Below, piece by piece: positions 2,391-18,823 of a DNA stretch of 19,514 nucleotides. The position numbers and the translations under genes were made by a program. A model generated the notes under the pieces. The model saw only the letters and a list, made by a program, of their open reading frames with translations. It did no database searches and was not told the DNA's origin. The stretch is from positions 1-19,514 of the IMG/VR virus record IMGVR_UViG_2585427793_000004; one strand, 5' to 3'. How positions within the stretch are numbered: position 1 is the first letter of the stretch; each line of letters opens with the position of its first letter. The DNA is from a virus. Lineage: Duplodnaviria; Heunggongvirae; Uroviricota; Caudoviricetes.

Positions 2391-2922
2391 GCTCACTGGC
2401 TTCCTGTGTTGCCGCCGGAACCGGTGAATAATCAAGAATGAGATAGCGCATGACGTGGTCGGTGATATTCCAGCCACTGGAGCCACAAATAAAACGTCCC
2501 AGCCGGATATCGATATACGCCATCACAAAACGGGGCATTCCCTGTTTGCACATTTCATCGCCCACTTCTGCAACGATGTAAACCGACTCGCAGGTCAGTA
2601 CGCCTGTCGCAAATTCTTTTGCCAGTGCCGGAATGGCATTGCCTTCCAGCCAGGGCAAAGAGCGGCGGAACGCACACCATTGAGCATCATCAACAGCGGG
2701 GTGCTCCGTTGTGTTTCGTCTTACCGGCGGCGTCGGGCGAGGGCGCGGAACATCATAAAACCCGTTGCATTCTGTCAGCATTCCGGCATCAACCGCATCA
2801 CGCAGGAAATACACCATTGAAGAAGGTGGCATATTCATTTTTTCCGCCAGAACGCCACAGGTCAGACGTCCGTAAGCCCGTAATAATGTACTGACACCGT
2901 TCAGAACTTTTGCATCAACCAT
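2383..2922 (-). CDS. Hypothetical early protein, 179 aa, possible winged-helix N-terminus
   Basis: ATG at 2922 with AGGA RBS; Pro-rich linker PRPRPTPPVRR between two halves. No family recognised. Confidence 0.55.
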   Translation of the reverse strand: MVDAKVLNGVSTLLRAYGRLTCGVLAEKMNMPPSSMVYFLRDAVDAGMLTECNGFYDVPRPRPTPPVRRNTTEHPAVDDAQWCAFRRSLPWLEGNAIPALAKEFATGVLTCESVYIVAEVGDEMCKQGMPRFVMAYIDIRLGRFICGSSGWNITDHVMRYLILDYSPVPAATQEASEHD

Positions 2923-3020
2923 TTTTTATTCCTGAGTAATCTGTTTCAGGCGCGAGCAATCCCCTGACGCATCGCGCCATAATTAAAAGAAAGTGAATTA
3001 ATTAAATATTCGTGGTGGTA

Positions 3021-3545
3021 TTAAATACCGGCTTCCTGTTCAAACGGAATAATAGAAAAATCTTCAATGCCTGATTTAACTGTAATTCCGGCGACACCTG
3101 CGACTGCTTTCGGTTCCAGTAAAATCGCTTCCTTGTTGATTTCCTGTTTCGTGCGAATAAAGCGTTGCAGGCCAAGACGCTCCAGCGTTTCCATCACCGC
3201 ATCCACACCGCGAATACTTACCGATGGTGGGCGCTGACGCCATTGCACATCACCGGTAACGAGGTTAGCACTTTTCACTTTGCCGCCGTTCGTCAGCTCG
3301 TCACGGTTCGCTTCACACCATCCCTGAACGCCTTTTGAAAGGGTTTCAATACTGGTTTTAAGGGGTGCAATCTGTGAGGCGTATTTCTCCGTAATCTCAG
3401 CGATAGCGTCATTCATTTCCGTTTCAAGTCGTGCCGCTTCGCGTTGCAGGTCACCAATCCGGCGGATATCACATACCACGGCATCACGGGATTGCGGAAC
3501 ATAAGTCGCTGCGGCGTTCCTGATTCGTTTTGCTGACTTAGCCAT
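3021..3545 (-). CDS. gam: Gam-like host-nuclease inhibitor (Mu Gam, Ku-like DNA-end-binding protein)
   Basis: 174 aa; ATG at 3545 with AGGAG RBS. MAKSAKRIRNAAATYVPQSRDAVVCDIRRIGDLQREAARLETEMNDAIAEITEKYA...NGGKVKSANLVTGDVQWRQRPPSVSIRG...EPKAVAGVAGITVKSGIEDFSIIPFEQ agrees closely with my recollection of Mu Gam. Confidence 0.85.
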   Translation of the reverse strand: MAKSAKRIRNAAATYVPQSRDAVVCDIRRIGDLQREAARLETEMNDAIAEITEKYASQIAPLKTSIETLSKGVQGWCEANRDELTNGGKVKSANLVTGDVQWRQRPPSVSIRGVDAVMETLERLGLQRFIRTKQEINKEAILLEPKAVAGVAGITVKSGIEDFSIIPFEQEAGI

Positions 3546-3565
3546 ATAAATAAAGCTCCTGTTAA

Positions 3566-3853
3566 TTAATATTCGCTGTATACAATACTGGATACAGCAC
3601 GATTGCTTAATTCCATCTTTTTGGCTATCACATGAATAGCCAGCCCTTCTTTATAAAGTTCACGACACAAATATTTGTCGTGCTCACTGATTCGGTATGC
3701 ACACAACGATATTCCGTGCCTTCTGGCATGTGCCCTGAGGGCCGTTGTGGCAACGTTCAGTTTTTTCGCCATTTCTTCAACGGTCATTTTTCCGACACTG
3801 GCTTCGATAAATTCCCGGTCTTCGCGTGACCAGCGTTTACGATTACACATCAT
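3566..3853 (-). CDS. Small DNA-binding protein with two HTH-like segments
   Basis: Track ORF 3566-3865 begins with GTG; the ATG at 3853 (MMCNRKRWSREDREF...) is preferred. Segments MTVEEMAKKLNVATTALRAHARRHGI and LAIHVIAKKMELSNRAVSSIV look like helix-turn-helix units. Confidence 0.5.
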   Translation of the reverse strand: MMCNRKRWSREDREFIEASVGKMTVEEMAKKLNVATTALRAHARRHGISLCAYRISEHDKYLCRELYKEGLAIHVIAKKMELSNRAVSSIVYSEY

Positions 3854-3865
3854 TCCGGTCACCAC

Positions 3866-4285
3866 TCAGTACAACAGGGGTTCGCGCAGTGATGCCGGAA
3901 TATGCCGCAGCGATAACTGAACCGCTTTCAGGGCAAGGGAAGAATACGTCCCCTGCGTCCAGCCTTTCGCCATTTGCCGGTACTCGCGCCAGATGTTCTG
4001 CCACTGCTCCCGTGCGTCCGGGTCTGACGCGCTGATGTATTCTCGGTCCATGACGTATTCCCATAAATCCACATTGAAGGCATTGCCAAACGTAATGGCG
4101 CGGAATACCGCCTCCCCGCAATAACGGGCACAAATGCTGTAATGGTCAAATGCAATCAGGTAAGTCTTTTCGCCATACCCCTTAACTTCGCGCGCGCAAA
4201 TAAATTCGCGCAAGTCTCCACCATTGCTATTACGCTCTTTAATCCGAATTAATGCCTGGATTTCGTTTCTGATTCTGGCGTTCAT
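3866..4285 (-). CDS. Hypothetical early protein, 139 aa
   Basis: Track ORF 3866-4333 trimmed to the ATG at 4285 with AAGGA RBS (MNARIRNEIQALIRIKERNSNGGDLREF...). No family recognised. Confidence 0.5.
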   Translation of the reverse strand: MNARIRNEIQALIRIKERNSNGGDLREFICAREVKGYGEKTYLIAFDHYSICARYCGEAVFRAITFGNAFNVDLWEYVMDREYISASDPDAREQWQNIWREYRQMAKGWTQGTYSSLALKAVQLSLRHIPASLREPLLY

Positions 4286-4305
4286 TGTCAGCGTTCCTTT
4301 GTGAA

Positions 4306-4575
4306 TTAATGTGTTGCGGCATCCGGGTTGCACCGGAATAACTCGCCTTCAACTTCCAGCCCGCGTTCCCTGGCGGATTCCAGCAACGCCCGGGTCGCCT
4401 TCTCAATAATTTCAGACGCCATACTCTTGATAATGCCTGCCATCAGATCATGCGGCCCGACCTGTCCCTCCGGGGATTGCTCTTCCAGCCGCACATTCAT
4501 ATTGATATAAAAATGGTTATTTCTTTGCATCTCAGCACTTTCTGCGCAATTAAATTCGAAGATGACCTTTGCCAT
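4306..4575 (-). CDS. Hypothetical early protein, 89 aa
   Basis: Track ORF 4306-4629 trimmed to the ATG at 4575 with GAGGA RBS (MAKVIFEFNCAESAEMQRNNHFYI...). Confidence 0.5.
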   Translation of the reverse strand: MAKVIFEFNCAESAEMQRNNHFYINMNVRLEEQSPEGQVGPHDLMAGIIKSMASEIIEKATRALLESARERGLEVEGELFRCNPDAATH

Positions 4576-4607
4576 TTTGTTATTCCTCACAAATAAAAAG
4601 TTCACTA

Positions 4608-4835
4608 TTAACGCCAGATAATCTGGCAACCATTAAGACGGGCTGTCCATACAGAACGGGCTACCCCGGACTTATGCTCCATAATTCTGACCGCGTTTTT
4701 TACCAGCTCCACCGGTGGGTATGTGATTTCAAGAATCGGACGAGCCACGCCGAGATATGATTCATTTACATGACTCCCGCGCGCCTGTAACCAGTTCTGC
4801 GCATCCGTCGCCATTTTGATATTCCGTGACATCAT
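4608..4835 (-). CDS. Small early protein, 75 aa, in the position of Mu kil
   Basis: ATG at 4835 with AAGGAG RBS, 14 nt after the B stop ([20 protein letters not shown]...). Assignment is positional only: in Mu the gene immediately after B is kil. Confidence 0.5.
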
Positions 4836-4848
4836 GATTTCGCTCTCC

Positions 4849-5787
4849 TTACGTGCGCAGCAGAGTTGAAATATCAACGTCCAGGTCTAATTCACGGAAA
4901 GCCTGACGCAGATAATCTTCATTAACTCGTTCACCTTTGCCGTGGGCGGTCATGGCCGCAAGGCGCAGCGAGTGGTTCAGGATTCGAAGCGCACCTGGTT
5001 TTTGTGCAATCTGCTGTAATAATTCCCGCTCGTTTTCGCCGGTAATTTGCCAGGCATCCGCAATGGCTTTTACATCATCAATTTTGGTTTTATTAATTGC
5101 CGTCCGCTTTGCAATACGGGAAAACAGGCGGGCAAATTCAACCGTTCTGTTACCGCCGGTCATGTTTGAATAAACACGGTGATTCCCCATCAGAACAAGA
5201 CCAATACGGGCGGATTCCTGTAACAGGCGGAGTTCTTCCAGAACCTCAGCGCCAAGATGATCAGCTTCGTCGATAATGACCAGCCCCTGCGTACCTTCAA
5301 GGCGGCGTCGCAAAGCGCGGGAGAGTGGCCCCTTACGGCGCGGTGCGTCATTCATTCCCAGTTCATAAGCCAGTTCAGTCAGGCATTCCAGAACACTGGC
5401 ACAGGATGGGGTAATGGTGATCAACCAGACATTGTTATTGGTGCGCCGAAATTCGCGGGCCGCTTCAGTTTTTCCCACACCTGGATTACCGCAGATAACA
5501 GAAATACTTTCAGTCAGACTGGCAAAACGCATACTCGTCCAGATTTGGCGTGCTGTTCTGGTTTCCACAAAACGCGGGGGTTCTGGCAGCTCTGCGGCGC
5601 GGTGATAGTTTTCCAGCCAGCGTTCCAGCGTCTGCGCGACACGGTCATTGTCTCCGTTGTACTTGTTATTCACGAATGCGCTTAACGTTCCTGCGGCCAC
5701 GCCGGACTCGCGGGCAATTTGTGCATAAGTTGTTTTTTCACTTTCTACAAGCGTGCGCAGTCCTGCGCGAATATCGGAAATATTCAT
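4849..5787 (-). CDS. B: Transposition ATPase / target DNA activator B (MuB-like, AAA+)
   Basis: 312 aa, the length of Mu B; Walker A GNPGVGKT and Walker [11 protein letters not shown]; N-terminal HTH. Near-identical over long stretches to Mu B as I recall it ([15 protein letters not shown]..., ...[12 protein letters not shown]). Confidence 0.9.
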
Positions 5788-5825
5788 CTGAATAACCTCG
5801 TAATTAAATTTTATTTAAACGTTAA

Positions 5826-7907
5826 TTAAATGGCTTTTTTACGTCTGTTCTGTTCCAGAATATCCAGCGAATGATTCAGATATTCGTCGCGGTCACTCTC
5901 ATATTCATCATCCGGTTCATCAGCCAGTACTAACACGACTTTCTCCACTGGTCTGTAGACGTTGTTGAACAACCCGTTGCCTGTAACAGGAGCAGGCAGT
6001 GTTCGGGTATTCTCTGCCTCGGCCAGTCTGATTTTTTCCTCTCCCCGCTGACGCATCCCTTTGATGCGCTGCTGGCGCTGATGGTATTCTGCAGTGACCG
6101 GGAATGCCTGCTGTTTATTGCCATCCCAGACCGCCTCACAGATATAGGACCCGTCCATGCGGCGGATAATTACTTTTGTTGCATCATGAATATCGTAATT
6201 CACCAGCACCTTATTACCGTGTTCATATTCCAGATCAGTTGAATAATAAATGTTATTAAACAACCTGACTTCACAACGGTTGACTGTACGTTCAATCTGC
6301 GGCATAAACATTTCACGCAGTTCAAGGTCGGACAACCATTCGATTTCTGTCGCTTCTTTTTCCAGTTTGTAGCGTCGGAACTGCGCCGGGGTGTAATGTT
6401 CACCGTTTCCACGTAGTGGTAGCGAACTATGCGGACGGTTGTTGTACCATTCCACACCAGCTTCAATAGCAACAATAAGTTCATTCCATGACGGCAGGTT
6501 TTTTAAAGCCTGCCGTTGTTTTTCTGTCAGCTCCCGTCCTTTGTTTGCCGCATTTGTTGCAGACATCAGAGTCTTTGTCATACGACGAACCGTTCCACGG
6601 TCGGCACCGGTGCCATAATACGTGGCAAACTGACGTGATATACGCATAGCCAGAGTGCGGTTCAGACGCTCTATAATCCCTCGCCCTTGCGGGTTTTCAG
6701 GTATACCAAGACGGTGATCAATTCCAAGACGCGGTAAAACCCCCGTGATATCAGCATCAAACGTGTTGTTAGTTTCACCGCCGCCATTATCTGAATAATA
6801 GATGTACGGTTTTCCGTGATTTTTAATTCCGTGGCGTAACGCATCAGCAACAGCAACCACACTTTCAGAAAGTGCCAGACTCCAGCCCACAATAAAGCGG
6901 CAACTGCCGTCCATGATAAAGGTGACTTCTGGAGAAAATGGATTGCCGTGATCAGGATGCGCCACTTTCATCTTCATGCCGTGACCATCACCAATCCAGG
7001 CATAATTCACCGGCAAAGATAACCAGTCCCGACGCACGAAGCCTTCATACTGGCGGAACTCACTGCCAGTAATGCGTCCGCGTTGTTTCACAACAACCGG
7101 GAGTTTGTTCATTGCATAGCAAACCTGATCATACGACGGCAGTGCTGCACACATCGCAGGATTATCCTGATGCACTTCATACCATTCCGCAGCAAAATCA
7201 TCATAAGCCTCCTGCATTCCGCACCCGTTCGGACGACGGTAAAAACGAAGAAACTCAGGTAACCAGCGAATCTGGTCGGGTTTTATGGGTTGACGTTTAC
7301 CAGGTGCCAGCATGATCAAACGTTCAGCCGGAGTGGTAGCCTTTTTAAAATCAGCAATCCAGCGTTTCAGTGATATTTCACTAAGGGATCGCAATGAACC
7401 TTTTTTCGCATTCGCAGTTGCAACGGTTTCCACCAGGTGTGCCGGTAACTCACCGTTTTTAGCCTGTTTCACAAACTCACGGATGGCAGCAGCCTGGCTG
7501 ATTCCTGGTAGTTCACAAACGCGCAAAACTTCGCTGACAATCGCAATTCGGGCGTCCGCTGTTTCTTTTTGCGTGGCGGTTAACGTTCCGAGTTTCTGCT
7601 CAAACAGCGCAGGACATTTGCGGTAAACCGCAATTTTGCCGTCTTCACGTTTTTTTAAACGCGGAGATTCAGGTTCTTTTGCCTCAGTTGCTGGCTGATT
7701 CATTAACGCCTTAATCTGGCGAGCCTGTAACGCCTTACGCGCCACATCAGGCAAACAGTCGACATGGAACTCAAAAGCCTTTGTCCCTGCACGCTTACGC
7801 ATCATTCCTTCTGATTCGCCGCAATAACGGCGCAATGCTTCCCGAATTCCTTTAATTGTTTTTGGTAATCCTGGTACACCGACCAGCTCTTTGGCGAGAA
7901 CAAACAT
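5826..7907 (-). CDS. A: DDE transposase A (MuA-like)
   Basis: 693 aa, ATG at 7907, 3 nt after the ner stop. N-terminal LPGLPKT motif as in the MuA DNA-binding domain; C-terminal tail ...DEYESDRDEYLNHSLDILEQNRRKKAI matches the MuA C-terminus as I remember it. Sits between ner and B as in Mu. Confidence 0.9.
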   Translation of the reverse strand: MFVLAKELVGVPGLPKTIKGIREALRRYCGESEGMMRKRAGTKAFEFHVDCLPDVARKALQARQIKALMNQPATEAKEPESPRLKKREDGKIAVYRKCPALFEQKLGTLTATQKETADARIAIVSEVLRVCELPGISQAAAIREFVKQAKNGELPAHLVETVATANAKKGSLRSLSEISLKRWIADFKKATTPAERLIMLAPGKRQPIKPDQIRWLPEFLRFYRRPNGCGMQEAYDDFAAEWYEVHQDNPAMCAALPSYDQVCYAMNKLPVVVKQRGRITGSEFRQYEGFVRRDWLSLPVNYAWIGDGHGMKMKVAHPDHGNPFSPEVTFIMDGSCRFIVGWSLALSESVVAVADALRHGIKNHGKPYIYYSDNGGGETNNTFDADITGVLPRLGIDHRLGIPENPQGRGIIERLNRTLAMRISRQFATYYGTGADRGTVRRMTKTLMSATNAANKGRELTEKQRQALKNLPSWNELIVAIEAGVEWYNNRPHSSLPLRGNGEHYTPAQFRRYKLEKEATEIEWLSDLELREMFMPQIERTVNRCEVRLFNNIYYSTDLEYEHGNKVLVNYDIHDATKVIIRRMDGSYICEAVWDGNKQQAFPVTAEYHQRQQRIKGMRQRGEEKIRLAEAENTRTLPAPVTGNGLFNNVYRPVEKVVLVLADEPDDEYESDRDEYLNHSLDILEQNRRKKAI

Positions 7908-7910
7908 AAA

Positions 7911-8159
7911 TCAGGATACCTTCTGAATGTAGCTTTCTGTCTGATAGCGGCTGGGCCAGATAGTTTCCGGTGCAACCCCCAGCGCATCAGCAACAATCTG
8001 CTGATAAGGTTTGCACGGTGTGCGTAAAACACTCTTGAGGGAGTCTTTGCTGTAACCCGCCTGAATGGACAGTGCGCGAAATGACAGTCCCCGTTTGTGA
8101 ATCTCTGCCTTAATGATTTCAGGGTGCCAATCGGCACGCGGATCTTCTTTTCGAGTCAT
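7911..8159 (-). CDS. ner: Ner-like DNA-binding early regulator
   Basis: 82 aa; ...ADWHPEIIKAEIHKRGLSFRALSIQAGYS...ETIWPSRYQ resembles Mu Ner (shared ...IWPSRYQ motif). Divergent from the repressor gene, immediately upstream of A. Confidence 0.8.
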   Translation of the reverse strand: MTRKEDPRADWHPEIIKAEIHKRGLSFRALSIQAGYSKDSLKSVLRTPCKPYQQIVADALGVAPETIWPSRYQTESYIQKVS

Positions 8160-8310
8160 GATTCCACTATCCTAAAAAGTTATCCGTGCGGATAACCGCG
8201 CGGTTATCCACTCGGACAAAGAATAAGAACACAAAAAGAACTTGTCAAATGTTCTTTTGTGTTTTTTATGTGTCTGCACTTTTTGTCTTTTAATTCAATT
8301 GGATAAGCAA
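8160..8310. promoter_or_regulatory. Divergent early/repressor promoter-operator region
   Basis: 151-bp gap between the divergent ner and repressor genes. Three alternating GTTATCC half-sites at 8179-8209 (GTTATCCG-TG-CGGATAAC-CGCGCG-GTTATCC), plus an imperfect palindrome CACAAAAAGAAC-N9-GTTCTTTTGTG at 8230-8261. Confidence 0.6.
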
Positions 8311-8922
8311 ATGAAACGTGAGACTCAAAAAGAACACAATGGTTCTTTTGCTCCTGATTCAAAAGAACCTGTTATCAATAGAATTTTTAAACTAGTAGAT
8401 CGCTATCGTTCGAGAAATGAAGCTGCGAAAGCGTGGGGAATCAACATCAATACGTTACAGAACTATTACAAACGTAAAGACCTCTCTCCAGTACCAAGAA
8501 AAACTCTGTTAGAAAAGATAGCGCAGTGTGAAGGGGTCAGCCTTGAATGGCTTCAAACCGGAGAGGGAAAAGAACCAGAAATGAACATAAAAAGAACTCA
8601 AGACGGTTTAGTGCCGCCTCATTCAGATTTAGATGATAAAATCCTATCGCTGATCCGCTTTTTGTCTGATAGCGAGAAAGAAGCGTTATTCCAGGTGCTT
8701 GCTCGCAAAGGGATAGAAACACTACTTTTTCTCCTTGACGAAGATAATATTCGCTTACTACAAATGGATCGCGTAGTGAAAGAGAAAATCCTGGGAATCC
8801 AGCCCAGAACGCCCGAGGAGCAGGCTTTTGCAGATAACGAGGCGAGAGAGTGTGATACCACTCATCCTTTACGCCATGAACAGTCCAAGAGCCTGACAAC
8901 TAAAAAGCAGCAGGCCCGCTGA
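8311..8922 (+). CDS. Phage repressor with CI-type helix-turn-helix
   Basis: Track ORF 8242-8922 starts at a TTG; first ATG is 8311 (MKRETQKEHNG..., 203 aa). NEAAKAWGININTLQNYYKRKDL...EGVSLEWLQTGEG resembles the phage CI-repressor HTH. Only convincing + strand gene in the window, divergent from ner as the Mu repressor is. Confidence 0.7.
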   Translation: MKRETQKEHNGSFAPDSKEPVINRIFKLVDRYRSRNEAAKAWGININTLQNYYKRKDLSPVPRKTLLEKIAQCEGVSLEWLQTGEGKEPEMNIKRTQDGLVPPHSDLDDKILSLIRFLSDSEKEALFQVLARKGIETLLFLLDEDNIRLLQMDRVVKEKILGIQPRTPEEQAFADNEARECDTTHPLRHEQSKSLTTKKQQAR

Positions 8923-9089: not shown

Positions 9090-9249
9090 TTGACGTAGTA
9101 TCAAAAGTTTTACCCAAACTGGCATTTTCCTTTGATGGTATCAAAAAAGCGGTAACACGAAATCAGCCTAACAACACAACCTAACTCGTTGTTTTATCCC
9201 GCCAAATCCCGTTTATTCTAATGTTCTCCCGGTTTTCTCTCTGGTATCA
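9090..9249 (-). repeat. Mu-type left end (attL-like) with three direct copies of a transposase-binding-like repeat
   Basis: On the element strand the motif TTTGATAC(C/T)A-N5-8-AAAA occurs three times (+ strand GTATCAAA at 9099-9106, 9143-9150, 9245-9252), spaced like Mu L1/L2/L3. Element-strand sequence from 9249 inward, TGATACCAGAGAGAAAACCGGGAGAACATTAGAATAAACGGGATTTGGCGGGAT, resembles the Mu left end as I recall it (...GAAAAAAACCGGGAGGACATTGGATTATTCGGGATCTGATGGGAT...). Exact terminus uncertain by about 10 bp. Confidence 0.55.
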
Positions 9250-9627
9250 AATAAACTCCTTCTCAATAAGCAGGGTGCCACCGGCATAAACAATCTCGCC
9301 CCCCTGCGGATCCGGCATCCATCCAAGCAGGGCTTTCCAGAGTTCTCTCCGGACATCATGAACGGCGTCATAGGCTGCCCACTGCCCTTTTTCATCACGC
9401 TCATTGCTGAGCACAACAATCACGGAGAAGCCTTCTGTCAAATCCTGCCAGTAATCGGTCTGTGATTTTTGTTCCCCCGGTGCATCGTCAGAGGGAACCA
9501 CATAGGCAGCAGGCAGTCGCAGTTTTCCGGCATCAGGGATCGCCTTAAACTGCGCCGCGCCACCAACACGATCCTCAAAACGCGGGCATCGCTCACGCAA
9601 CGCCGCAATTATCGTTGTCAGTTTCAT
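9247..9627 (-). CDS. Phage neck / tail-terminator-like hypothetical protein, 126 aa, possibly 3'-truncated by the Mu-like insertion
   Basis: ATG at 9627 overlapping the stop of the upstream gene. Its TGA stop (9247-9249) falls inside the first bases of the putative Mu-like end, so the native C-terminus may be replaced. Family assignment is a guess from position after a gp10-like gene. Confidence 0.55.
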   Translation of the reverse strand: MKLTTIIAALRERCPRFEDRVGGAAQFKAIPDAGKLRLPAAYVVPSDDAPGEQKSQTDYWQDLTEGFSVIVVLSNERDEKGQWAAYDAVHDVRRELWKALLGWMPDPQGGEIVYAGGTLLIEKEFI

Positions 9628-10148
9628 TTATGCTTCCTTTTTACCGGACGTAACGAACGCTGCAGCTCACGGGACAACAGTTCCTGCGTCCAGTGACGCC
9701 GCCGCTCAATAACGTCAGCCATAAAGTTATTACGCGGGGCCAGCCGGAAAGTCGAAGAATGGTGCTTCTTCTGCCGCTTATCCTTTTTGTCCATTCCATA
9801 CGCTGAATGGCGAACGCCGTAATACAGAAATGCCGGATAATAGGATGCGCCTTCATGGAAACGGCGATTCCCCTGCCCGTTTTTCTGGTTAGGAGAAATT
9901 TTCACCATCAGTCCGGGGCGACGCGTCGTTTTTTTGGGAACGTAATAACCGATGGAGCGGGCCAGACGCCCGGTCTGATATCCCGGATTCTCTCCCGGAC
10001 CGGAACGCCCGCGTTTAATCACCAGACGTCTGGCGTCGCGCATATAGACGCGCCCGATCTGCACAAATGCCCGCCGCAGACGGGCACGATTAAACTCCAG
10101 CTCCTTTGGTTGTTTAAAGTCGACGTGTAAAAATGCTGTCTGATTCAT
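9624..10148 (-). CDS. HK97 gp10-family head-tail joining protein
   Basis: Track ORF 9624-10187 trimmed to the ATG at 10148 with GGGGTGA RBS (MNQTAFLHVDFKQPKELEFNRARL...). Motif RGRSGPGENPGYQTGRLARSIGYYV resembles the conserved PG...TGRLRRSI signature of the HK97 gp10 family. Confidence 0.65.
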   Translation of the reverse strand: MNQTAFLHVDFKQPKELEFNRARLRRAFVQIGRVYMRDARRLVIKRGRSGPGENPGYQTGRLARSIGYYVPKKTTRRPGLMVKISPNQKNGQGNRRFHEGASYYPAFLYYGVRHSAYGMDKKDKRQKKHHSSTFRLAPRNNFMADVIERRRHWTQELLSRELQRSLRPVKRKHK

Positions 10149-10530
10149 GGCATTCACCCCATCGTCGCGCTGTACGCAGTTCCTCACATTCCAGTAATAA
10201 AAAACGTCGCTGACCGTTCAGGTCGCGTATTCGCCGGATCCGGTACTCCTGACCGTAATAAACCACCTCATGATCTGCCGTGATGCCGTGACGGAAACGG
10301 ATTGTAAAATAATGCGTAACGACATTTTCTGTCTGCACTGAGCCCTGATAAGCGGCAGCGCCTGGCTGAGCCACCTTTGCCCAGACATCAAACGACTCCG
10401 GATACGTTGGCTCCGTACCAAAATCAGCGGTGGGTTCATCCACCCGAAGGCGGATCTTTATCCGGCGATTCAGCTCTCCGGGATCCGGTAAAAGGTAAGT
10501 GGCACTGGTCTGACTTTGCCTGATTTTCAT
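10114..10530 (-). CDS. Head-tail adaptor / head closure protein
   Basis: Track ORF 10114-10563 trimmed to the ATG at 10530 (ATGA overlap with the connector stop). ...PGELNRRIKIRL...WAKV...YRIRRIRDLNGQRRFLLLECEEL is the typical head-tail adaptor signature. Confidence 0.7.
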   Translation of the reverse strand: MKIRQSQTSATYLLPDPGELNRRIKIRLRVDEPTADFGTEPTYPESFDVWAKVAQPGAAAYQGSVQTENVVTHYFTIRFRHGITADHEVVYYGQEYRIRRIRDLNGQRRFLLLECEELRTARRWGECHESDSIFTRRL

Positions 10531-10850
10531 AGCGGGACAATCCTGTAAGGGCCAGCAAGCCATCTGAAACTCATTGGCGTTTCCAGTTTCTCCACATCGG
10601 TGATCGTTGAGCGATTTTCATAAAAATGACTGACCAGCATCAGCATTGCCAGACGAACGTCATCAGTCAGATGCATCCCGTCAGGATCGTCTTCCGGAAT
10701 CGTCTCTTCCGGTGCATACAACTTCCTGTTCAGGTATGTCTCTGTTCTTTTCTGTACCGCCTGTGCCAGCAATTTCAGAAAATCGCCGTCACTGTACAAA
10801 CCATCATCGAGCCGGAGGTGAGATTTAATTTCCTCTTCTTTCAGGAGCAT
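10527..10850 (-). CDS. gp6-like head-tail connector protein
   Basis: The supplied track lists this ORF as +, but the translation MLLKEEEIKSHLRLDDG... is only obtained from the reverse complement: ATG at 10848-10850, strong AGGAGG RBS, TGA at 10527-10529. N-terminal ...EEIKSHLRLD... is the usual gp6-type connector start. Confidence 0.75.
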   Translation of the reverse strand: MLLKEEEIKSHLRLDDGLYSDGDFLKLLAQAVQKRTETYLNRKLYAPEETIPEDDPDGMHLTDDVRLAMLMLVSHFYENRSTITDVEKLETPMSFRWLAGPYRIVPL

Positions 10851-10861
10851 ATTTTCCTCCT

Positions 10862-10883
10862 GTGCCCGCCATTACGCGGGCAC
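10862..10883 (-). other. GC-rich stem-loop between major capsid and connector genes
   Basis: Perfect inverted repeat GTGCCCGC-cattac-GCGGGCAC, between the MCP stop (10896) and the connector RBS. On the - strand the U-run precedes rather than follows the stem, so not a canonical terminator. Confidence 0.4.
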
Positions 10884-10895
10884 AAAAAAACCGCA

Positions 10896-12122
10896 TTACG
10901 CAGTGGCTTTCTGGCGGGTTGCAGCCCCAATTTTCATCAGCTTAATCGCCTGAGAATCCACCAGCATACCGCCGGTTCGCTTGGTGGTATAAAAACCCAC
11001 AAACGGTTTGTTGGTGTACGGATCGCGCAGGATACGGGTACCGATGCGATCAACGATGGTATAGCCACGTTTGAAGTTACCAAACGCAATGGCTTTTGCA
11101 TCGGCGGCAATATCCGGCATCTGCTCATTCTCAACGATGCCATACCCTGCCAGAGAAGAAGGCTGACCCAGCTCAATACCCGGACGCCACAGATAATTTC
11201 CGTCGTTATCCTTCAGCAGACGAATGGCAAACAGGCTGCTGTTGTTCATCATGAACTTCGCGCCGCTGCGGTGCGCCTTACGCAGGGTGTAAATCAGTTT
11301 AATGATCGCATCAGCGGTCACGCCGGAAGCCGCACCGGAAGCGATATGCTGAAGTTTGCCAAACTTACGGGTTTTGTCATCTTCATCGGTGGACTCATAA
11401 GCCAGAAAACCTTTTGGTTTTTTGCTGCCGTCGCCACTGGTAAAGGCCATTTCTTCCTGTTCGGCAAATTCCAGCGCCAGCTCACTGTTGATCCAGTCTT
11501 CCACATTGAAGAAAGCGTCATCGAGCATTTTCTGGGTGGCCTGCGGGTTGCCGTAGATTTCCCCCATAAAGGGTTCAATCAGCCCCAGTTTTGAGGTGGC
11601 GGTTTCCGGACGCGTATCCGTTTCCCCCACCCATCCGGACTTAGTGCCGCCCAGATTCACCAGTTTTTTATAATCCGAGCCACCGAGGGTGATCACGGTG
11701 GCTTCCTGGCGCATCACCACCTCATCTTTCAGCAGCGTCAGGATGGTACGATCCAGTTCTTCCGGAATGGCATAACCACCATCTTCATCATTGCCCACCT
11801 GAAGCGCCTTACGTTCAAGTTCACGCAGACCGTCTTCACGCCCCTTGCGCATAAATCCGATAAACGCTTCTTTGTGTTCACCGGCAACTTTATTTTTCGT
11901 GCCGCCTGCCGGACGCTTAACTTCAGCCAGCTCAGCCTCAAGATCGCTTTTCAGGTTTTCCAGCTCGCTGATTTGCCCGTTCAGGCTTTCCACCTGTTCG
12001 GCCAGCTTGCTTTTTTCCTGTTCGATCGCGTCAATGCGCTTGTCGTTTTTTGCCTTAAAATCGTCAAACTTCTGCTGCAAATCCTGCGCGACCTGTTCAA
12101 CGTCTTTAATATCAACAGCCAT
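10896..12122 (-). CDS. Major capsid protein, HK97 fold, with N-terminal scaffolding-like delta domain
   Basis: 408 aa; ATG at 12122 with AGGAG RBS. N-terminal ~100 aa are coiled-coil-like (KLAEQVESLNGQISELENLKSDLEAELAEVK), followed by a capsid domain, as in HK97 gp5-type proteins. Confidence 0.9.
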   Translation of the reverse strand: MAVDIKDVEQVAQDLQQKFDDFKAKNDKRIDAIEQEKSKLAEQVESLNGQISELENLKSDLEAELAEVKRPAGGTKNKVAGEHKEAFIGFMRKGREDGLRELERKALQVGNDEDGGYAIPEELDRTILTLLKDEVVMRQEATVITLGGSDYKKLVNLGGTKSGWVGETDTRPETATSKLGLIEPFMGEIYGNPQATQKMLDDAFFNVEDWINSELALEFAEQEEMAFTSGDGSKKPKGFLAYESTDEDDKTRKFGKLQHIASGAASGVTADAIIKLIYTLRKAHRSGAKFMMNNSSLFAIRLLKDNDGNYLWRPGIELGQPSSLAGYGIVENEQMPDIAADAKAIAFGNFKRGYTIVDRIGTRILRDPYTNKPFVGFYTTKRTGGMLVDSQAIKLMKIGAATRQKATA

Positions 12123-12135
12123 TATTTACTCCTGG

Positions 12136-12786
12136 TTAAAATTTAAGATTTTTCAGTGCATTCAGTGCGACATCCACATCCTCAGCATCACGCAGGGATA
12201 AAGCGCCATATCCCCCGGCCATGAATGCTTTGGCCTGGGTTCGCGAGAGTCCAACATCGCGCAGGACTCGCTCAATAATTTTCTGATCAGGGATCTCCCC
12301 ACGCGCCAGCGCATTTTTCACATCGCTGATGCGTGCTTCATCATTGGAAGGAAACGTCACCAGACTGACCTCCCACAGGTCGATCTCTTTCAGCAGGAAT
12401 ACCCCTTTTTCCCGGTCGTACTCCCAGTCTTTCAGGATGTAGCCAACAGAAAGGCCGGTTAAAGAACCGGCCTTCATATGGGCGTGTGCACGTTTTGCCA
12501 GGGGATCATCATCAACGAGTAATCGCCCCCTGACATAAAGCCCGACATCATCTTCTTTCATTTCGGTGTACACACCGATGGGCTCATCCATGCGGTGCTG
12601 CCAGAGCAACGCAGGCAGCGCCTTTTTTTCGCTCCATTTCTGGAGTGTTGTGGTAAAGGCACCGGGGACCACCACATCATCGTGGCTGTCCTTTACACCA
12701 AAGACGGAGCCATACCCTTCAAACTCACCGGAGTCACTGACAGATTTCAGACTCAGCGGTACATCAAGACGTTGTTTCGTCTGCAT
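12136..12786 (-). CDS. Prohead maturation protease (HK97 family, S78-like)
   Basis: Track ORF 12136-12822 trimmed to the ATG at 12786 with AAGGA RBS (MQTKQRLDVPLSLKSVSDSGEFEGYGSVFGVKDSHDDVV...). Lies between portal and capsid genes. Confidence 0.8.
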   Translation of the reverse strand: MQTKQRLDVPLSLKSVSDSGEFEGYGSVFGVKDSHDDVVVPGAFTTTLQKWSEKKALPALLWQHRMDEPIGVYTEMKEDDVGLYVRGRLLVDDDPLAKRAHAHMKAGSLTGLSVGYILKDWEYDREKGVFLLKEIDLWEVSLVTFPSNDEARISDVKNALARGEIPDQKIIERVLRDVGLSRTQAKAFMAGGYGALSLRDAEDVDVALNALKNLKF

Positions 12787-14005
12787 TGGCGTTATCCTTC
12801 TGCTTACCGGCTTTACTGCCATCGGAGGGTTTCGTGGTCATGTTCATCGGTGTGAGATAGACATCACCACCGGGACGCGGATTCATATCTTCCAGGTCGC
12901 GGCAGTCATTGGGAGAGTAAATTCTCCAGTTGATCCCCGTGGCGTAGGCTTCAAAACGGGATTTCATATCCCCGCGCAGTAACGCCCCGGCGTTAAATTT
13001 GGCGTAAAACTTCCCCTGTTTGCTCTCCCTGACCAGCCCTGTATTGATCCGTTGTTCAATACGGGTCAGATACGGCACAAGGGAATAGTTGATAAATCCG
13101 AGCCCCAGCTCTTCAATATTGTTGAAAGTGGCGCGATCGGTGTTCTGCACCATGTGCAGCGGCACGCGGAAAAGACGACAGATTTCTTCCAGCTGAAACT
13201 TGCGGGTTTCCAGGAACTGGCTGTCCTCGGCGTTCAGTGCCACCGGCTTCCAGTCCAGCCCCATTTCCAGAATCATCGGACGGTGCGCATTACCCAGCCC
13301 AAGATGCCGCTCCTCAAAATCCCTCTTCATGCGCTCATAAGCATCCGGCGTGAGCTTTTGTTCCGTACGCAACACACCGGATGTCACAGCACCGTTACCA
13401 AACAGCCTGGCGCCGTGCTCCTCGGTTGCCGCTGCCAGTGAAATGGCCTCGCGCGCATATGCAATGGGATTCAGACCGACAAGTCCATCCAGCGTCAGGG
13501 TGCGCACATGCCAGATTTCATCCTGGGTCAACACATCCACGGAGCCATCCGGAAACGTCACCTGATAAACCGGCTGCCACTGGCTGTTCAGCTTCGGCTC
13601 CACACAGCCCGGATCTATCGGAAGAAGCTCCACTACTTCCCCCAGCGCCTTCACCTTGTAGGCGTAAAAATTCCCCCGCAGACACAGGCAGACAATAACC
13701 AGCTCCCAGAATTCCTGCGGCGTCATGTAGCCATTGGGTTTTGCTGAAATCAGCTTATGCAGCCGTTCATCCACCGCCCGTGTTTTAAGGGTGCCGCTGA
13801 TTTTGTAGAGACTGCAGGGCAGCATACCAACAGACTCAGCCAGCACCCTGACGCAGGAATACACCGCCGTCAGCCGCATGGCCCGCTGGCTGCTGATCCG
13901 CTTTCCGGTATAGGTGTCGTATGACAACCCCAGCTCTTCCGCAAGCATCCCGGGCGTTGTGACGGGGGTGTTATTTTTACGTTGAAAAAGCCCCTGGAAA
14001 AACAT
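12764..14005 (-). CDS. Portal protein (HK97 family)
   Basis: 413 aa; ATG at 14005 with GGAGGTGA RBS. Size and position between large terminase and protease are canonical. Confidence 0.85.
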   Translation of the reverse strand: MFFQGLFQRKNNTPVTTPGMLAEELGLSYDTYTGKRISSQRAMRLTAVYSCVRVLAESVGMLPCSLYKISGTLKTRAVDERLHKLISAKPNGYMTPQEFWELVIVCLCLRGNFYAYKVKALGEVVELLPIDPGCVEPKLNSQWQPVYQVTFPDGSVDVLTQDEIWHVRTLTLDGLVGLNPIAYAREAISLAAATEEHGARLFGNGAVTSGVLRTEQKLTPDAYERMKRDFEERHLGLGNAHRPMILEMGLDWKPVALNAEDSQFLETRKFQLEEICRLFRVPLHMVQNTDRATFNNIEELGLGFINYSLVPYLTRIEQRINTGLVRESKQGKFYAKFNAGALLRGDMKSRFEAYATGINWRIYSPNDCRDLEDMNPRPGGDVYLTPMNMTTKPSDGSKAGKQKDNANADETTS

Positions 14006-14187
14006 TACTCACCTCCGGAGGCGACCCGGTGACCACGATCGAGATAACGCGCAACCAGCCACGACCAGCACAGACACAGCCCCCCGGCAACAACAAAACC
14101 CGCCGGGGGATAAATCAGCCAGGCGCCATACGCCAGCAAAAGCACACCCAGCACGCCCACCAGAGGCGTGAGAATTATCAGAAACAT
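14005..14187 (-). CDS. Small two-helix membrane protein, 60 aa, inserted between terminase and portal
   Basis: ATG at 14187 with GAGG RBS; stop overlaps the portal [52 protein letters not shown] has two hydrophobic helices. HK97-type modules normally have terminase and portal genes adjacent. Confidence 0.45.
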
Positions 14188-14198
14188 AATGACCTCGG

Positions 14199-15956
14199 TT
14201 AAAGCGAGCGAATACCAACGCTGACCAGATGTTCAGACAGATCCGGCTCCGGTTCACCGCCATTGACCAGCATCCGGCTCATTGCTGTAAACATCGCAAC
14301 AGGGCCGTCGATTTTGGCTTCCGGCGTGGATTTATTCGGGAAGATATTGTCGTTTTTGTCCGGTTTTACCGTAACGTTAGACATCATCCAGTTCATGACC
14401 GGATGATTGCTGTGGTGGAAACGCCCGGCATAGACCAGTGATTCCGTTTCCTTCATGGCCTCTGACAGATTGCGGACCGTCTGCGGAACTTCCACCAGCG
14501 GTATACCTTCTTCAGTCAGCGCCAGACTGAACTGCATTGCGCTCCACGGGTCAAATCCCAGTTCCCTCAGGTTTTCACCGCCAATCCATTCCAGTAGGTC
14601 ACTTTTGATCTGAGCATGATCGATAACATCACCATCCGTCAGGATGAGCTTACCCATCTCCGCCCACTTCCGGTAAAGTTCTGCCTGCTGCCGTGAGCAT
14701 CGTTCCAGCCGTCCTTCCGGAAGCCAGAATTTAAAATCGGCATGAACATGCCCGTTATCCGTTCGCCAGAGTTTTGCCGCCGCACAGATATCAATCTTAT
14801 GAGCAAGGTCGACGCCGACCCACATGGGATATGTTTTCAGCTCATGCTGTGGAGCAATGTATTCGCACTTCTCCCACTTAATCATGTCCATCCAGGCAGA
14901 CTCTGCTGTTACCCACACATTCATGTGTTTGGTAAAAAAATTCACCCGCGCAGAGACCTGTTCTTTCGCTTTTTTCGCCAGGCGACGCAGATCATCCCAG
15001 CGTTTACAGATGCCCAGGCCGGGATTCGCTTTCTGCCAGACCGTTTCATCAAACGGATCATCTCCCTCATCGAGGGTGTAAATAATCGCAAAGTAGGAGT
15101 CGTCTTTTACCGCGCCCTCCACGTCGCTGTTATAGCCTCGCAATACCTTGATGGCGTAATCGCGTTGCTCGTAACAAATCCCTTCCTTGTTAAAGCCAGC
15201 CGTGGTGATACCAAATAACAGGGACTGCAGACGGGCACCGGTTGCCGTTTCCAGAACGTCCCACACGTCGCGGGTTTTATGTGCATGCAGCTCATCAATA
15301 ATGGCGCAGTGGATGTTCAGACCATCCAGGTTGTTTGCATCCGAGGAAAGCGGTTCAAATTTTGATGCGCTCTGCTCCTGGTAAATCGCCAGCTTGTTGA
15401 AATCAAACAACCGCCCGAGTGTCGATCGGGCTTTTCTGACCATATTTTTGGCGTCTTCAAACACGATTCTGGCCTGGTCACGCGTGGTTGCGGCTGAATA
15501 CACCTCAGCCCCGCCTTCACCATCTGCCCCCGTCATATACAGACCGATACCTGATGACAGGGTTGATTTTGCGTTTTTACGGGCGACTTCGTTGTACGCT
15601 GTCCGGAAACGGCGCACCATCACCGGGCGTCCGCTGCCATCGCTGCGCATGACAACTTCCCCGGTCTCTTCATTCACCAGCGGAATGACAAAACCAAAAA
15701 TATTAATGAGGATAAAAACATGCCAGTCCATCAGTTCAATGGGCTGACCTGCCAGCGCCCCTTTTACATGGGGCACAAATTTGTAGAAATTCAGGATGTG
15801 CTGCGCACGGGGTTCACTGAAATAAATCCCCCGCTCTTCGCCGTACTTCAGATCATCAAGAAAACGCTGGCAGGCCAGACGGACAAATTCACCAGCGACA
15901 ATTTCTCCTGCAACAACACGTTCGGCGTAGCGGATCCCGTCAGCCACTTTTGCCAT
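14199..15956 (-). CDS. Terminase large subunit
   Basis: 585 aa; ATG at 15956, ATGA overlap with the small-subunit stop. Size and placement between small terminase and portal. Confidence 0.9.
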
Positions 15957-16438
15957 CAGTCTCTCGCTTTTAAAAGTTCTGCCAGCGGATCAACATCATC
16001 CGGTCCGGCGATATTTACTTTCGCCCGGCTTGCCGGTGACATACCAAATTCTGCAAGCATCGCCCGGATCCGCTTCCAGGCATCCGCTTTCATCGCAGCA
16101 GCCGGGTGTGCCTTAATCAGCACATCACCGTTCTGCGTTTCCGTGCGGTAGGTATAACCCTCAACATCGAGTGTTTCGCAGTGATGCCGGTATTCGGTGT
16201 AGGCTTCCACCAGCAACTCGAGTGCACGCGCATCAAGCTGAGAAATGATCCCTTCCGCATTCAGCTCTTCCGCCATTCGCCTGAACCAGTACTTTCCCTG
16301 CGCCCCTAAATGCTGCGGAATTTTAGGGAGACCTTTTTCGTCCTTTTTAGCGGTTTTTTTGGCGTCTTTAACGGGACGCTTTGAGGGATTGCCTCGTATC
16401 AAATGCAGGCGTGGCGGGGGTTTCGGGGGGCCTGACAT
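15956..16438 (-). CDS. Terminase small subunit (P27-family-like)
   Basis: 160 aa; basic, Lys/Pro-rich N-terminus (MSGPPKPPPRLHLIRGNPSKRPVKDAKK) then a helical domain; directly upstream of the large subunit. Confidence 0.75.
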   Translation of the reverse strand: MSGPPKPPPRLHLIRGNPSKRPVKDAKKTAKKDEKGLPKIPQHLGAQGKYWFRRMAEELNAEGIISQLDARALELLVEAYTEYRHHCETLDVEGYTYRTETQNGDVLIKAHPAAAMKADAWKRIRAMLAEFGMSPASRAKVNIAGPDDVDPLAELLKARD

Positions 16439-16585
16439 AATCGATTTTACCTATCAATCGTTTGATCGCATTCCCAAAAAAAAGTTTTCGAACCTGCGGC
16501 GATGCGAGGAAGGGTTGGCGGGCGGTCCCGGACAGCCAGGGCTGCAGGGATTTGCCCCGCCCCTCCCTACAAGTGAGAATAATTA
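16439..16585. other. Candidate cos / packaging-site region
   Basis: 147-bp non-coding, GC-rich gap between HNH and small terminase genes, where HK97-like phages place cos. Contains GGTTGGCGGGCGGTCCCGG, loosely reminiscent of lambda cosN. Speculative. Confidence 0.3.
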
Positions 16586-16936
16586 TCACCTGATTCGTTC
16601 GCGCGCTGTTTTCGCTTTATGGCAGGGCCAGCACAGACTCTGCAGGTTGCTGTCTGCGTCTGTTCCGCCATGCGCTTTCGGGATGATGTGGTCGACGGTT
16701 TTCGCCTCGCTCACCACACCGGCACGCAGACACAACTGACACAGACCTTTATCGCGCTTCAGAATACGGGCACGAATCACCGTCCATTTTGAGCCATAGC
16801 CACGCTGGTGGCGGCTCAGTCCGCGCTGGTGCTGCACCCAGCCTTCACCACGATGTTTATCACAGTAGCCAGAGCTGTCTGTTGTTGTGCCTGCGCAGCC
16901 TCGCTTACGACAGGCGCGGGGGATCCGTGATGGCAT
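16586..16936 (-). CDS. HNH endonuclease (terminase-associated)
   Basis: Track ORF 16586-17005 starts at a GTG; the ATG at 16936 has a strong AAGGAG RBS (MPSRIPRACRKRGCAGT...). Cys pairs CxxC...CxxC and the H-x-x-P-x-x-x-G-G motif (DHIIPKAHGGTD...CWPCH) are typical HNH; placement before the terminase is classical for HK97-like phages. Confidence 0.8.
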   Translation of the reverse strand: MPSRIPRACRKRGCAGTTTDSSGYCDKHRGEGWVQHQRGLSRHQRGYGSKWTVIRARILKRDKGLCQLCLRAGVVSEAKTVDHIIPKAHGGTDADSNLQSLCWPCHKAKTARERIR

Positions 16937-16997
16937 TGGAATCTCCTTAATACCGACATTATCGCAGCCCCTCACTGAAGAGCTGCTGTAATGCCTG

Positions 16998-17126
16998 TTA
17001 CTCACGAATCAATCGAGCATGTTGACCGCTCATTTCAACATGTTGACCGCTCATTTCAATGCGTAAGTATTGTGGCTTGCCGTCAATCAACGCGGTGATT
17101 AACTTATCACCTGTAGGTTTCCACAT
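16998..17126 (-). CDS. Small ORF, 42 aa, containing a 21-bp in-frame tandem duplication
   Basis: ATG at 17126 with AGGAGA RBS; translation MWKPTGDKLITALIDGKPQYLRIEMSGQHVEMSGQHARLIRE; TAA at 16998-17000. Below the track's 60-aa cutoff. Coding status uncertain. Confidence 0.3.
   Translation of the reverse strand: MWKPTGDKLITALIDGKPQYLRIEMSGQHVEMSGQHARLIRE
17018..17059. repeat. Perfect 21-bp direct tandem duplication (2 copies)
   Basis: CATGTTGACCGCTCATTTCAA at 17018-17038 and again at 17039-17059, with no mismatches. Confidence 0.95.
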
Positions 17127-17299
17127 AATTTTCTCCTGTTTTAATGCCCCTTGCCGCCGGGCAGTTGATCAAAGTTCATCTTGATTCGGCAAGATTTAGA
17201 ATGAATAAGATAAAATTGGCACACGCAGCAGAATTTCATGCTTTCCGGACGCTGACGCACCCTTCATTTTTCAGCAAAATATTCTGCTCTTACAGGCGA

Positions 17300-17482
17300 T
17301 CAGTTCTGCAGACACTGCCGAACACCGTCGACAATTTCACAGACCTGAGACGCGGTATCGAAAAGCTGGCGCGCCTTATCCAGGCTGACGCACCCCACCA
17401 ATAAAAAAGGCACCAGTATCGCTACCAGTGCCCGTTTCACCGCCGTTCGCGGCATTCTGTGTGTCCAGTGTTTTCGCGCCAT
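17300..17482 (-). CDS. Small putative lipoprotein, 60 aa
   Basis: MARKHWTHRMPRTAVKRALVAILVPFLLVGCVSLDK...: hydrophobic signal segment ending in a lipobox-like LLVGC; mature part ~30 aa with 3 Cys. Not proline-rich, so not a typical o-spanin. Confidence 0.45.
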   Translation of the reverse strand: MARKHWTHRMPRTAVKRALVAILVPFLLVGCVSLDKARQLFDTASQVCEIVDGVRQCLQN

Positions 17483-17486
17483 ATCA

Positions 17487-17597
17487 CCACCAACGCACAG
17501 CCCAAATCAGAACAGCGACCGCCACAAGGCGAATTGCAAAGGCCGCAGCCCTTGTCAAATCAAGGCTCGCGGGAGTTTCCATTTCAATACCTTTCAT
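17487..17597 (-). CDS. Mini membrane protein, 36 aa
   Basis: ATG at 17597 with GAGG RBS; MKGIEMETPASLDLTRAAAFAIRLVAVAVLIWAVRWW; its stop sits 5 nt before the ATG of the lipoprotein gene. Below the track cutoff. Confidence 0.3.
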
Positions 17598-17685
17598 AAT
17601 GGACAACCTCAAAAAGAATCTTTTATACTTTCCCACGAGGATTTTCTCCCTACTCACTAATCACAATTTCCCCTTTGACGTGAAA

Positions 17686-17728
17686 ACTAAAAACCCCGGA
17701 CTGTTCCCCCAGCCGGGGTTTTGTTTTA
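17686..17728 (-). terminator. Rho-independent terminator after the endolysin gene (bidirectional in appearance)
   Basis: AAAACCCCGG-N13-CCGGGGTTTT with T/A runs on both sides; on the - strand the stem is followed by UUUUUAGUUUU and begins right after the endolysin stop at 17730. Confidence 0.7.
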
Positions 17729-17729
17729 C

Positions 17730-18107
17730 TTATCGCTTCAGCTGAAAGTGAGGTCCGTCTTTCAGCGTTTTCCAGTCCCCGCCCCATTCGATAGCGATCC
17801 CCAGCTCTGCGGCAGCCTGCTTAAATGCCTGTGCGATTTTCTCGTACAGAGGCCACTCCCATGACACCTGACTGCCAATGTAGGCCACAACATCCACCGC
17901 ATCACCGGTCAGGTGGCGGCTGTTCATGGTCTGGCTTTTCCCTTCCGCAACCAGCTGTTTCTGGCGATACTTACTGCGCAGGCCTTCCGTAATACCGAAA
18001 TCAACCTCCGTCAGCTCCAGCGCACGGCGAACTACAGCAACCAGCTGTGGTTTGACACCCTCCAGATTTTTTTCACTGCGACGGCTGAATCTGAATTTAC
18101 CCGGCAT
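17730..18107 (-). CDS. Endolysin, peptidase M15-like (L-alanyl-D-glutamate peptidase type)
   Basis: Track ORF starts at a GTG (18113); the ATG at 18107 follows a GAGG RBS (MPGKFRFSRRSEKNLEG...). Zinc-site-like pattern SRHLTGDAVD ... DGPHFQ (H-x-x-x-D ... H) typical of M15 phage endolysins. Confidence 0.75.
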   Translation of the reverse strand: MPGKFRFSRRSEKNLEGVKPQLVAVVRRALELTEVDFGITEGLRSKYRQKQLVAEGKSQTMNSRHLTGDAVDVVAYIGSQVSWEWPLYEKIAQAFKQAAAELGIAIEWGGDWKTLKDGPHFQLKR

Positions 18108-18109
18108 AT

Positions 18110-18385
18110 TCACCTCAACAATGGAAAGATTTTTGTGACGTTCCCGCGTGCGCGTATCACCAGCACGCAGAACAGCAGATTAAAAAACACTTCCAGCCAG
18201 CCCGTTGCTAACGGGCGACCACACAGATAGCTGAGGGGCGCAAAGGCATACAGCAGCATCAGCAGCCAGGCCAGCCATGACACCAGCGGTTTATGTCTGG
18301 AATCACGGCGACGATAAAAAAAGAGCGTCAGCACGATAACCGTGCATAACGCCACATTCAGCAATCCGGGAAGGTTACTTAACAT
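18110..18385 (-). CDS. Lysis-cassette membrane protein (holin or antiholin candidate), 91 aa
   Basis: Track ORF 18110-18439 trimmed to the ATG at 18385 with GGAGG RBS (MLSNLPGLLNVALCTVIVLTLFFYRRRDSRHKPLVSWLAWLLMLLYAF...). At least two hydrophobic helices; immediately upstream of the endolysin. Confidence 0.55.
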   Translation of the reverse strand: MLSNLPGLLNVALCTVIVLTLFFYRRRDSRHKPLVSWLAWLLMLLYAFAPLSYLCGRPLATGWLEVFFNLLFCVLVIRARGNVTKIFPLLR

Positions 18386-18767: not shown

Positions 18768-18777
18768 ACTTCCTCCT

Positions 18778-18805
18778 GAAAATAAAAAAGGGCCACCAGC
18801 GACCC
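18778..18805 (-). terminator. Weak terminator-like hairpin immediately upstream of the holin RBS
   Basis: Minus-strand RNA GGGUCGCUGGUGGCCC (6-bp stem with two G-U pairs) followed by UUUUUUAUUUU, abutting the holin RBS. Confidence 0.35.
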
Positions 18806-18823
18806 GTAAAAAAACACCCCGTC

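Follow-up and report, generated by a model that had tools for sequence, protein, structure and literature searches.

The array of alternating GTTATCC half-sites located just upstream of ner in this Mu-like prophage is probably the operator of the phage's own Ner protein, as judged from comparisons at the sequence level. The earlier note had put the sites forward as a candidate operator cluster for the prophage repressor and Ner. An operator-like role is upheld by the position of the array, its conservation and its occurrence in relatives, and Ner is a likely ligand; the repressor is an improbable one, the boxes being unchanged in three natural repressor swaps.

Genetic Organization of the Early Region

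The window (the whole stretch of 19,514 nt that was analysed) contains the left, early end of a Mu-like prophage, which is read from the minus strand. On this strand ner (7911–8159, ATG at 8159) encodes an 82-aa Ner-family helix-turn-helix (HTH) protein (Pfam HTH_35, E 8.5e-22; PHROG 769) similar to Mu Ner (1NEQ, E 2.4e-12) and to the Ner-family protein EnrR (7F9H, E 7.5e-10). Next to it on the same strand are the genes for MuA (5826–7907), with a MuA domain and the Mu DNA-binding domain PF02316, and MuB (4849–5787), with a MuB domain. A Ner operator is expected beside the first early gene, and the gene adjoining the array indeed encodes a Ner-family HTH protein, with the transposase genes A and B coming next.

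Divergently from ner, the plus strand carries a gene for a 203-aa repressor (8311–8922), the start of which was placed at 8311 and not at 8312. The product was assigned to PHROG 3037 (“transcriptional repressor”, E 1e-42), and its homologue in phage VW-6B is annotated as C repressor. No Pfam match was found for this protein, and its comparison with Mu c and with the N-terminus of MuA showed no similarity; sites common to repressor and transposase, as in Mu, are therefore not expected here by homology. Among deposited sequences, those closest to the window over ner and the repressor gene came from Yersinia phage Tongde and from an E. coli A21 prophage.

The MuB-to-gam segment (2417–5912) was 86–89% identical at the DNA level to D108, SfMu and Mu-like Yersinia phages, whereas no DNA-level similarity to the same phages was detected for MuA, ner and the repressor gene, which indicates that the early region is mosaic. 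As seen over 9213–19514, the Mu-like prophage is inserted into a second prophage, a relative of phiP27 (94% identity over 9300–14216), which supplies TerL (14199–15956), portal, capsid and a tail terminator gene (9247–9627). The Mu-like left end begins at about 9249 (TGATACCAGAGAGAAAACCGGGAG..., minus strand); it interrupts the tail terminator gene and supplies it with a stop codon.

Sequence and Geometry of the Array

Matches to GTTATCC were found in the ner/repressor region at 8179–8185 (+), 8190–8196 (−) and 8203–8209 (+), and direct reading of 8179–8209 gave GTTATCCGTGCGGATAACCGCGCGGTTATCC, exactly the arrangement of three alternating half-sites and two overlapping palindromes upstream of ner that the earlier note had described. 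The whole window contained seven matches to GTTATCC, as compared with 1.65 expected, and none of 200 shuffles gave as many. A repeat finder returned an 8 + 8 palindrome, GTTATCCG/CGGATAAC, with a gap of 2 nt (I18), a pair of 20 + 20 arms at 8180–8199 and 8200–8219 (I3), and a direct family of three copies with 12-bp spacing (D1). By direct reading, 8190–8209 is a perfect 20-bp palindrome (10 + 10), GGATAACCGC/GCGGTTATCC.

The array is better read as three 8-bp units with 12-bp spacing, AGTTATCC, GGATAACC and GGTTATCC, with the unit consensus (A/G)G(A/T)TA(A/T)CC and an orientation that alternates along the array. Box U1 (8202–8209) reads GGTTATCC on the plus strand and GGATAACC on the ner strand; box U2 (8190–8197), the central unit common to both palindromes, reads GGATAACC and GGTTATCC, respectively; and box U3 (8178–8185), the unit closest to ner, reads AGTTATCC and GGATAACT. 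A degenerate fourth unit, U0 (8214–8219), lies 12 bp from U1; on the ner strand it is TTGTCC in the window and TTATCC in most relatives. The dyad symmetry characteristic of Ner operators is thus present in the form of perfect 8 + 8 and 10 + 10 palindromes set in a 12-bp register.

A weight matrix was trained on relatives only, the window and its twin being left out. With this matrix U1, U2 and U3 were the top three matches across all 19.5 kb, U1 having the joint top score. The three-unit array scored 40.9, as compared with 11.4 for the next independent site and a background mean of −48.6 (s.d. 13.8). The array was unique within the 19.5-kb window. The strict palindrome, GGATAACC-N4-GGTTATCC, was found at 26 IMG/VR loci. 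Only two of these adjoined ner; the other 24 were unrelated viral contigs, mostly with hairpins of other kinds. By a rough estimate 26 loci is about the chance expectation for 16 fixed bases. With so few loci next to ner, the strict palindrome alone is not diagnostic and is unusable as a signature.

A further motif, GGATAAG, 3 bp before the repressor ATG, had been called related to the boxes. The motif is there (8301–8307, plus strand), but the relation to the boxes was not sustained. Its matrix score of 8.8 is at the chance level, tied with about ten unrelated sites; it is missing in Tongde and A21 despite the same Ner; and it lies within TTCAATTGGATAA, an element of the swapped immunity cassette described below. 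It is not supported as a Ner box.

Early Promoter and ner Leader

The only promoter-like site in 8100–8400 was a predicted early promoter, Pe, on the minus strand (8220–8248), with a −35 hexamer TTGACA (8248..8243), a 17-nt spacer and a −10 hexamer TATTCT (8225..8220), 10 of the 12 hexamer positions being matched. Both hexamers hold their position among the relatives. From the hexamer positions we infer a transcription start at about 8213. Reckoned from this predicted start, the boxes cover approximately +5 to +36 of the ner leader, U1 being at about +5 to +12, and U0 falls between the −10 hexamer and the start. Ner operators lie between the start of the early promoter and the ner ATG; the array occupies the same interval, as reckoned from the predicted start, and this layout was kept in 36 leaders.

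The same scan of 8100–8400 found no plus-strand repressor promoter overlapping the boxes, which leaves the second role of Mu Ner, repression of Pc, unexplained here. A conserved TTCAAT upstream of the repressor gene is a candidate −10 hexamer and is far from the boxes.

The best-conserved stretch of the ner leader was a near-invariant block, CTTTTTAGGATAG (8167–8179, minus strand), with 1.6–2.0 bits per column in 36 leaders. It holds the Shine-Dalgarno sequence AGGA (8173..8170) and could be a mere translation signal. The sequence CTTTTTAG is common to this block and to the Mu element CTTTTTAGTAAG adjoining Pe.

Conservation of the Array among Relatives

Loci were gathered from genomes and viral contigs by Ner-protein searches, and the 67 nt upstream of ner were aligned without gaps for 35–36 distinct leaders. 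The cores of the units showed 1.0–2.0 bits per column, as compared with 0.2–0.6 bits in the 4-nt spacers (36 leaders), and the orientation of the units was kept in most clades. In the L005-type and L004-type Ner clades, named after representative loci, U2 was replaced by GGATATCC or GAATATCC. The Ner clade was found here in Mu-like phages and prophages associated with Escherichia, Yersinia, Serratia, Kluyvera, Pantoea, Erwinia, Sodalis and Pseudomonas. Since the recognition helix of Ner is almost invariant across clades whose boxes differ slightly, no clean residue-to-base code relating the helix to the box variants could be derived.

Action of the interlocking palindromes in the RNA was also considered, the ner leader being taken as a source of two mutually exclusive hairpins, U1:U2 and U2:U3 followed by UUUUU, which would serve as an attenuator or a stabilising 5′ structure. 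Either hairpin can be folded from the leader of the window (−14.3 and −9.0 kcal/mol when each is taken alone; −16.9 kcal/mol for the whole leader), the T run after U2:U3 is conserved, and 90% of the U2:U3 cells of the alignment are pairable on the ner strand. However, U2:U3 pairing did not exceed that of shuffled columns (89.6% vs 90.1%), with changes on both sides in only two cells, and the covariation of U1:U2 was slight (seven cells). The fold z-score was only −1.65, U2:U3 was lost (−2.1) in locus L029, which among the relatives whose leaders differ is the closest, and U0, which is upstream of the predicted start, is conserved all the same. Such a role in RNA is accordingly improbable. As to an attenuator or intrinsic terminator in particular, it was rejected in view of a terminator scan that called none in the 8100–8400 region, the lack of covariation beyond the make-up of the columns, and hairpin energies that were not conserved, ranging from 0 to −14 kcal/mol among the relatives. 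An Rfam scan gave no family at threshold, the only sub-threshold matches being microRNA-like and derived from long AAGAAC inverted repeats.

Natural Exchanges and the Ligand of the Boxes

Comparison of the window with Tongde and A21 revealed DNA identities of 96–100% over ner and the boxes, 48–80% from 8226 to about 8790, and 100% thereafter. At the protein level Ner was 99–100% and the MuA N-terminus 99% identical, as opposed to 46% for the repressor N-terminus, and the boxes were identical at 32 of 32 positions. The same outcome, a swapped repressor with unchanged boxes, was observed again between loci L011/L032 and L020/L031, and for a third time between L098 and L100/L105.

The converse situation was found in L005, in which the MuA N-terminus was 97.5% identical to that of the window, Ner was only 55% identical, and the boxes were GGATATCC twice. 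Loci L076–L080 shared the Ner clade and the box type of L005, with MuA 45–48% identical to that of the window, and in most relatives the MuA N-termini were 50–57% identical and yet the box cores were the same. The box type follows the Ner clade, and not the repressor, MuA or the host.

Boxes kept through repressor swaps and changed with the Ner clade point to Ner, rather than the repressor, as the likely ligand, and argue against MuA or a host factor such as DnaA as well. The sequence of a Ner operator should vary with the type of Ner and with none of the region's other DNA-binding proteins, and this was the case here, with linkage to ner as a caveat: the boxes are less than 50 bp from ner, and their co-inheritance with it could reflect this proximity, so the argument on the ligand hangs on the location of the recombination breakpoints.

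In Mu the transposition enhancer is located in the operator region, and the MuA of the window carries PF02316, so that the boxes might be an enhancer or another site for the MuA N-terminal DNA-binding domain. This is very improbable, since a nearly identical domain in L005 is accompanied by different boxes, a divergent MuA in L076–L080 by the boxes of L005, and the 50–57% identical N-termini of most relatives by the box cores of the window.

A cluster of host-factor sites is just as improbable. DnaA boxes (consensus TTATNCACA) came into consideration through TTATCCACT (8204–8212) and TTATCCGCA (8195..8187), each one mismatch from the consensus. The CACA part of these matches falls in the least conserved columns, that is, in the spacers, and one-mismatch matches occurred window-wide at the chance level (23 vs 15.6 ± 4). 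Furthermore, L002 and L005, both prophages of E. coli, carry different box types, which follow the Ner clade.

Exchange of an immunity cassette, extending from 8226 to about 8790 and flanked by DNA of 96–100% identity, is seen relative to both Tongde and E. coli A21. Within the cassette are the −35 hexamer of Pe, both AAGAAC palindromes and, counted from the N-terminus, two thirds of the repressor. Its breakpoint at 8225/8226 coincides with the −10 hexamer at the upstream edge of the latter, so that the promoter is divided between two modules.

Candidate Operators of the Repressor

The repressor operators of Mu cover Pe, and by this precedent the boxes could be operators of the 203-aa repressor, alone or jointly with Ner: they are in the divergent region adjoining Pe, and the corresponding CTTTTYAGTAA repeats are visible in the Mu sequence. 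A repressor operator would be expected to overlap the −35 and −10 hexamers of the early promoter and to change with the DNA-binding domain of the repressor. The three strong boxes are located downstream of the −10 hexamer and stayed identical through three independent swaps of that domain, whereas another set of repeats, the AAGAAC palindromes, tracks the repressor HTH type. The boxes are therefore quite improbable as repressor operators.

The AAAGAAC set was over-represented in the window, with 11 matches as compared with 3.2 expected. The AAGAAC/GTTCTT palindromes are, as far as comparison of the sequences allows, probably the better candidates for the repressor operators. One of them, AAGAACACAAAAAGAAC-TTGTCAAAT-GTTCTTTTGTGTT (8225–8263), is centred on the −35 hexamer of Pe outside the Ner array and is a probable repressor operator. 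The other, AAAAGAAC-ACAATG-GTTCTTTT (8328–8349; I20), lies within the first codons of the repressor gene and is a probable second one. In the relatives, the arms at both palindromes changed with the HTH type of the repressor, AAGAAC being paired with ...TLQNYYK and GATCACC...ATACC/GGTATTTTTGG with ...TLNSYFK, and several further types were found.

In the relatives of 8328–8349, the right arm of the palindrome and the peptide that it encodes in the repressor gene followed the operator type of each phage. The palindrome inside the repressor gene (8328–8349 and the homologous positions of L001–L047) constrains the protein. The N-terminal peptide varied with the half-site, being GSF from GGTTCTTTT in the window, CIF from TGTATTTTT in Tongde and GIF in L004.

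Comparison with Known Systems

In Mu the Ner operator consists of two 12-bp repeats, ANYTARCTAAGT, 6 bp apart. Inspection of the Mu sequence revealed an inverted repeat AGCTAGCTAAGT-N6-ACTTAGTTAAAT at 1029–1058, and that of D108 an inverted repeat CCGTGAGCTAC-N8-GTAGCTCACGG at 994–1023, 27 bp before the ner ATG; both are the Ner-binding sites described in the literature. In the GenBank record of Mu, 991–1028 and 1063–1101 are labelled as Ner-binding region, and the repeat flanked by them is itself unlabelled. The D108 operator reportedly spans 61 bp, as given in the title of a paper, and contains two 11-bp inverted repeats 8 bp apart.

The array resembles the D108 operator in its location in the leader between Pe and ner, next to a Ner-family gene, and in its inverted-repeat symmetry; the footprint in D108 is that of several protomers, and the array proposed here is of similar length. 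It differs from the D108 operator in an unrelated sequence and in its layout, one 30-bp dyad there as against three or four 8-bp units here, which interlock and are spaced at 12 bp; the two Ner proteins are only 42% identical. As in Mu, the array is found shortly after the start of Pe, and by analogy the function to be expected is also that of Mu, autoregulation of the early operon by its first gene product. Here the Ner proteins are 45% identical, and in contrast to Mu, in which the repressor and MuA have a common DNA-binding fold and common sites, the repressor belongs to another family.

No match to the Ner-site sequences of Mu or D108 was found in 8160–8310 within two mismatches. Since Ner is only 42–45% identical to its counterparts, a match in sequence was not to be expected; its absence counts against membership by sequence but leaves the functional analogy intact. 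Some element for control of the early promoter by Ner was to be expected in a Mu-like phage; the sequence and layout of the present probable operator are not known to have been described before, and we know of no description of a phased multi-protomer operator for Mu or D108.

The likeness to lambda Cro on OR is one of principle, a small early repressor lowering its own promoter through adjoining phased sites. The protein families are unrelated, and Cro and CI use the same operators, whereas here the two sets of sites appear to be separate.

A structural precedent is provided by EnrR of Edwardsiella (PDB 7F9H/7F9I), which is a monomer in solution and of which two protomers pack on the short continuous palindrome CTATAG (PMC9023278). 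EnrR serves as a global regulator with a preference for AT-rich DNA and is not a phage switch protein. The fold is homologous to that of Ner (E 7.5e-10, as above), and the TA-rich core CTATAG resembles GGATATCC and GGATAACC; a pair of protomers on so short a palindrome makes units of this kind plausible sites. In EnrR the palindrome is centred on an AT step, as against a TA step in the present boxes, and Arg47 and Arg55, through which EnrR contacts bases, correspond in the alignment to Asp39 and Thr47 of the Ner studied here, a change that fits a different specificity.

Proposed Mode of Action

The mechanism that we propose for the Ner operator is as follows. Three strong units and one weak unit reach from the −10/start region of Pe to approximately +36 in the leader of ner. 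Ner, the first product of the early transcript, would bind them cooperatively, either as one protomer per oriented unit or as dimers on GTTATCC-N4-GGATAAC. The conservation of orientation favours these two arrangements, between which the data cannot choose. Bound Ner would prevent either initiation at Pe or escape from it and so lower the expression of ner, A and B after induction or infection. The repressor would work separately through the AAGAAC palindromes, which overlie the −35 hexamer of Pe and the beginning of the repressor gene. We infer binding by Ner, its stoichiometry and the regulatory outcome from the comparisons given above.

A more tentative extension, which we regard as possible but doubtful, is that Pe is a split promoter, in which the repressor gene is inherited together with its operators and the −35 hexamer, and ner together with the −10 hexamer, the start and the phased Ner array. 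Immunity would then change by recombination in the spacer, and Ner would act as an oligomer of at least three to four protomers.

A testable operator is hereby defined for a widespread Ner clade, and in the switch the Ner boxes can be told apart from the repressor palindromes, which aids the prediction of immunity groups from sequence. The immunity cassettes of these phages are exchanged at a breakpoint within the early promoter, the switch being built of exchangeable modules. In addition, short and probably orthogonal protein/operator pairs are offered for engineering.

Other Phased Arrays

Arrays of GGGATAACCCAC with a 12-bp period, whose orientation flips midway, were observed in two unrelated viral contigs, at about 4331 in L059 and at about 2574 in L064; no Ner gene was found near either array. 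In L081, which represents a distant Ner clade, four direct 13-bp repeats, (A/G)G(A/G)CTTA(C/G)C..., are located about 90 nt upstream of the ner homologue, and from this locus phased arrays upstream of ner may be a general feature.
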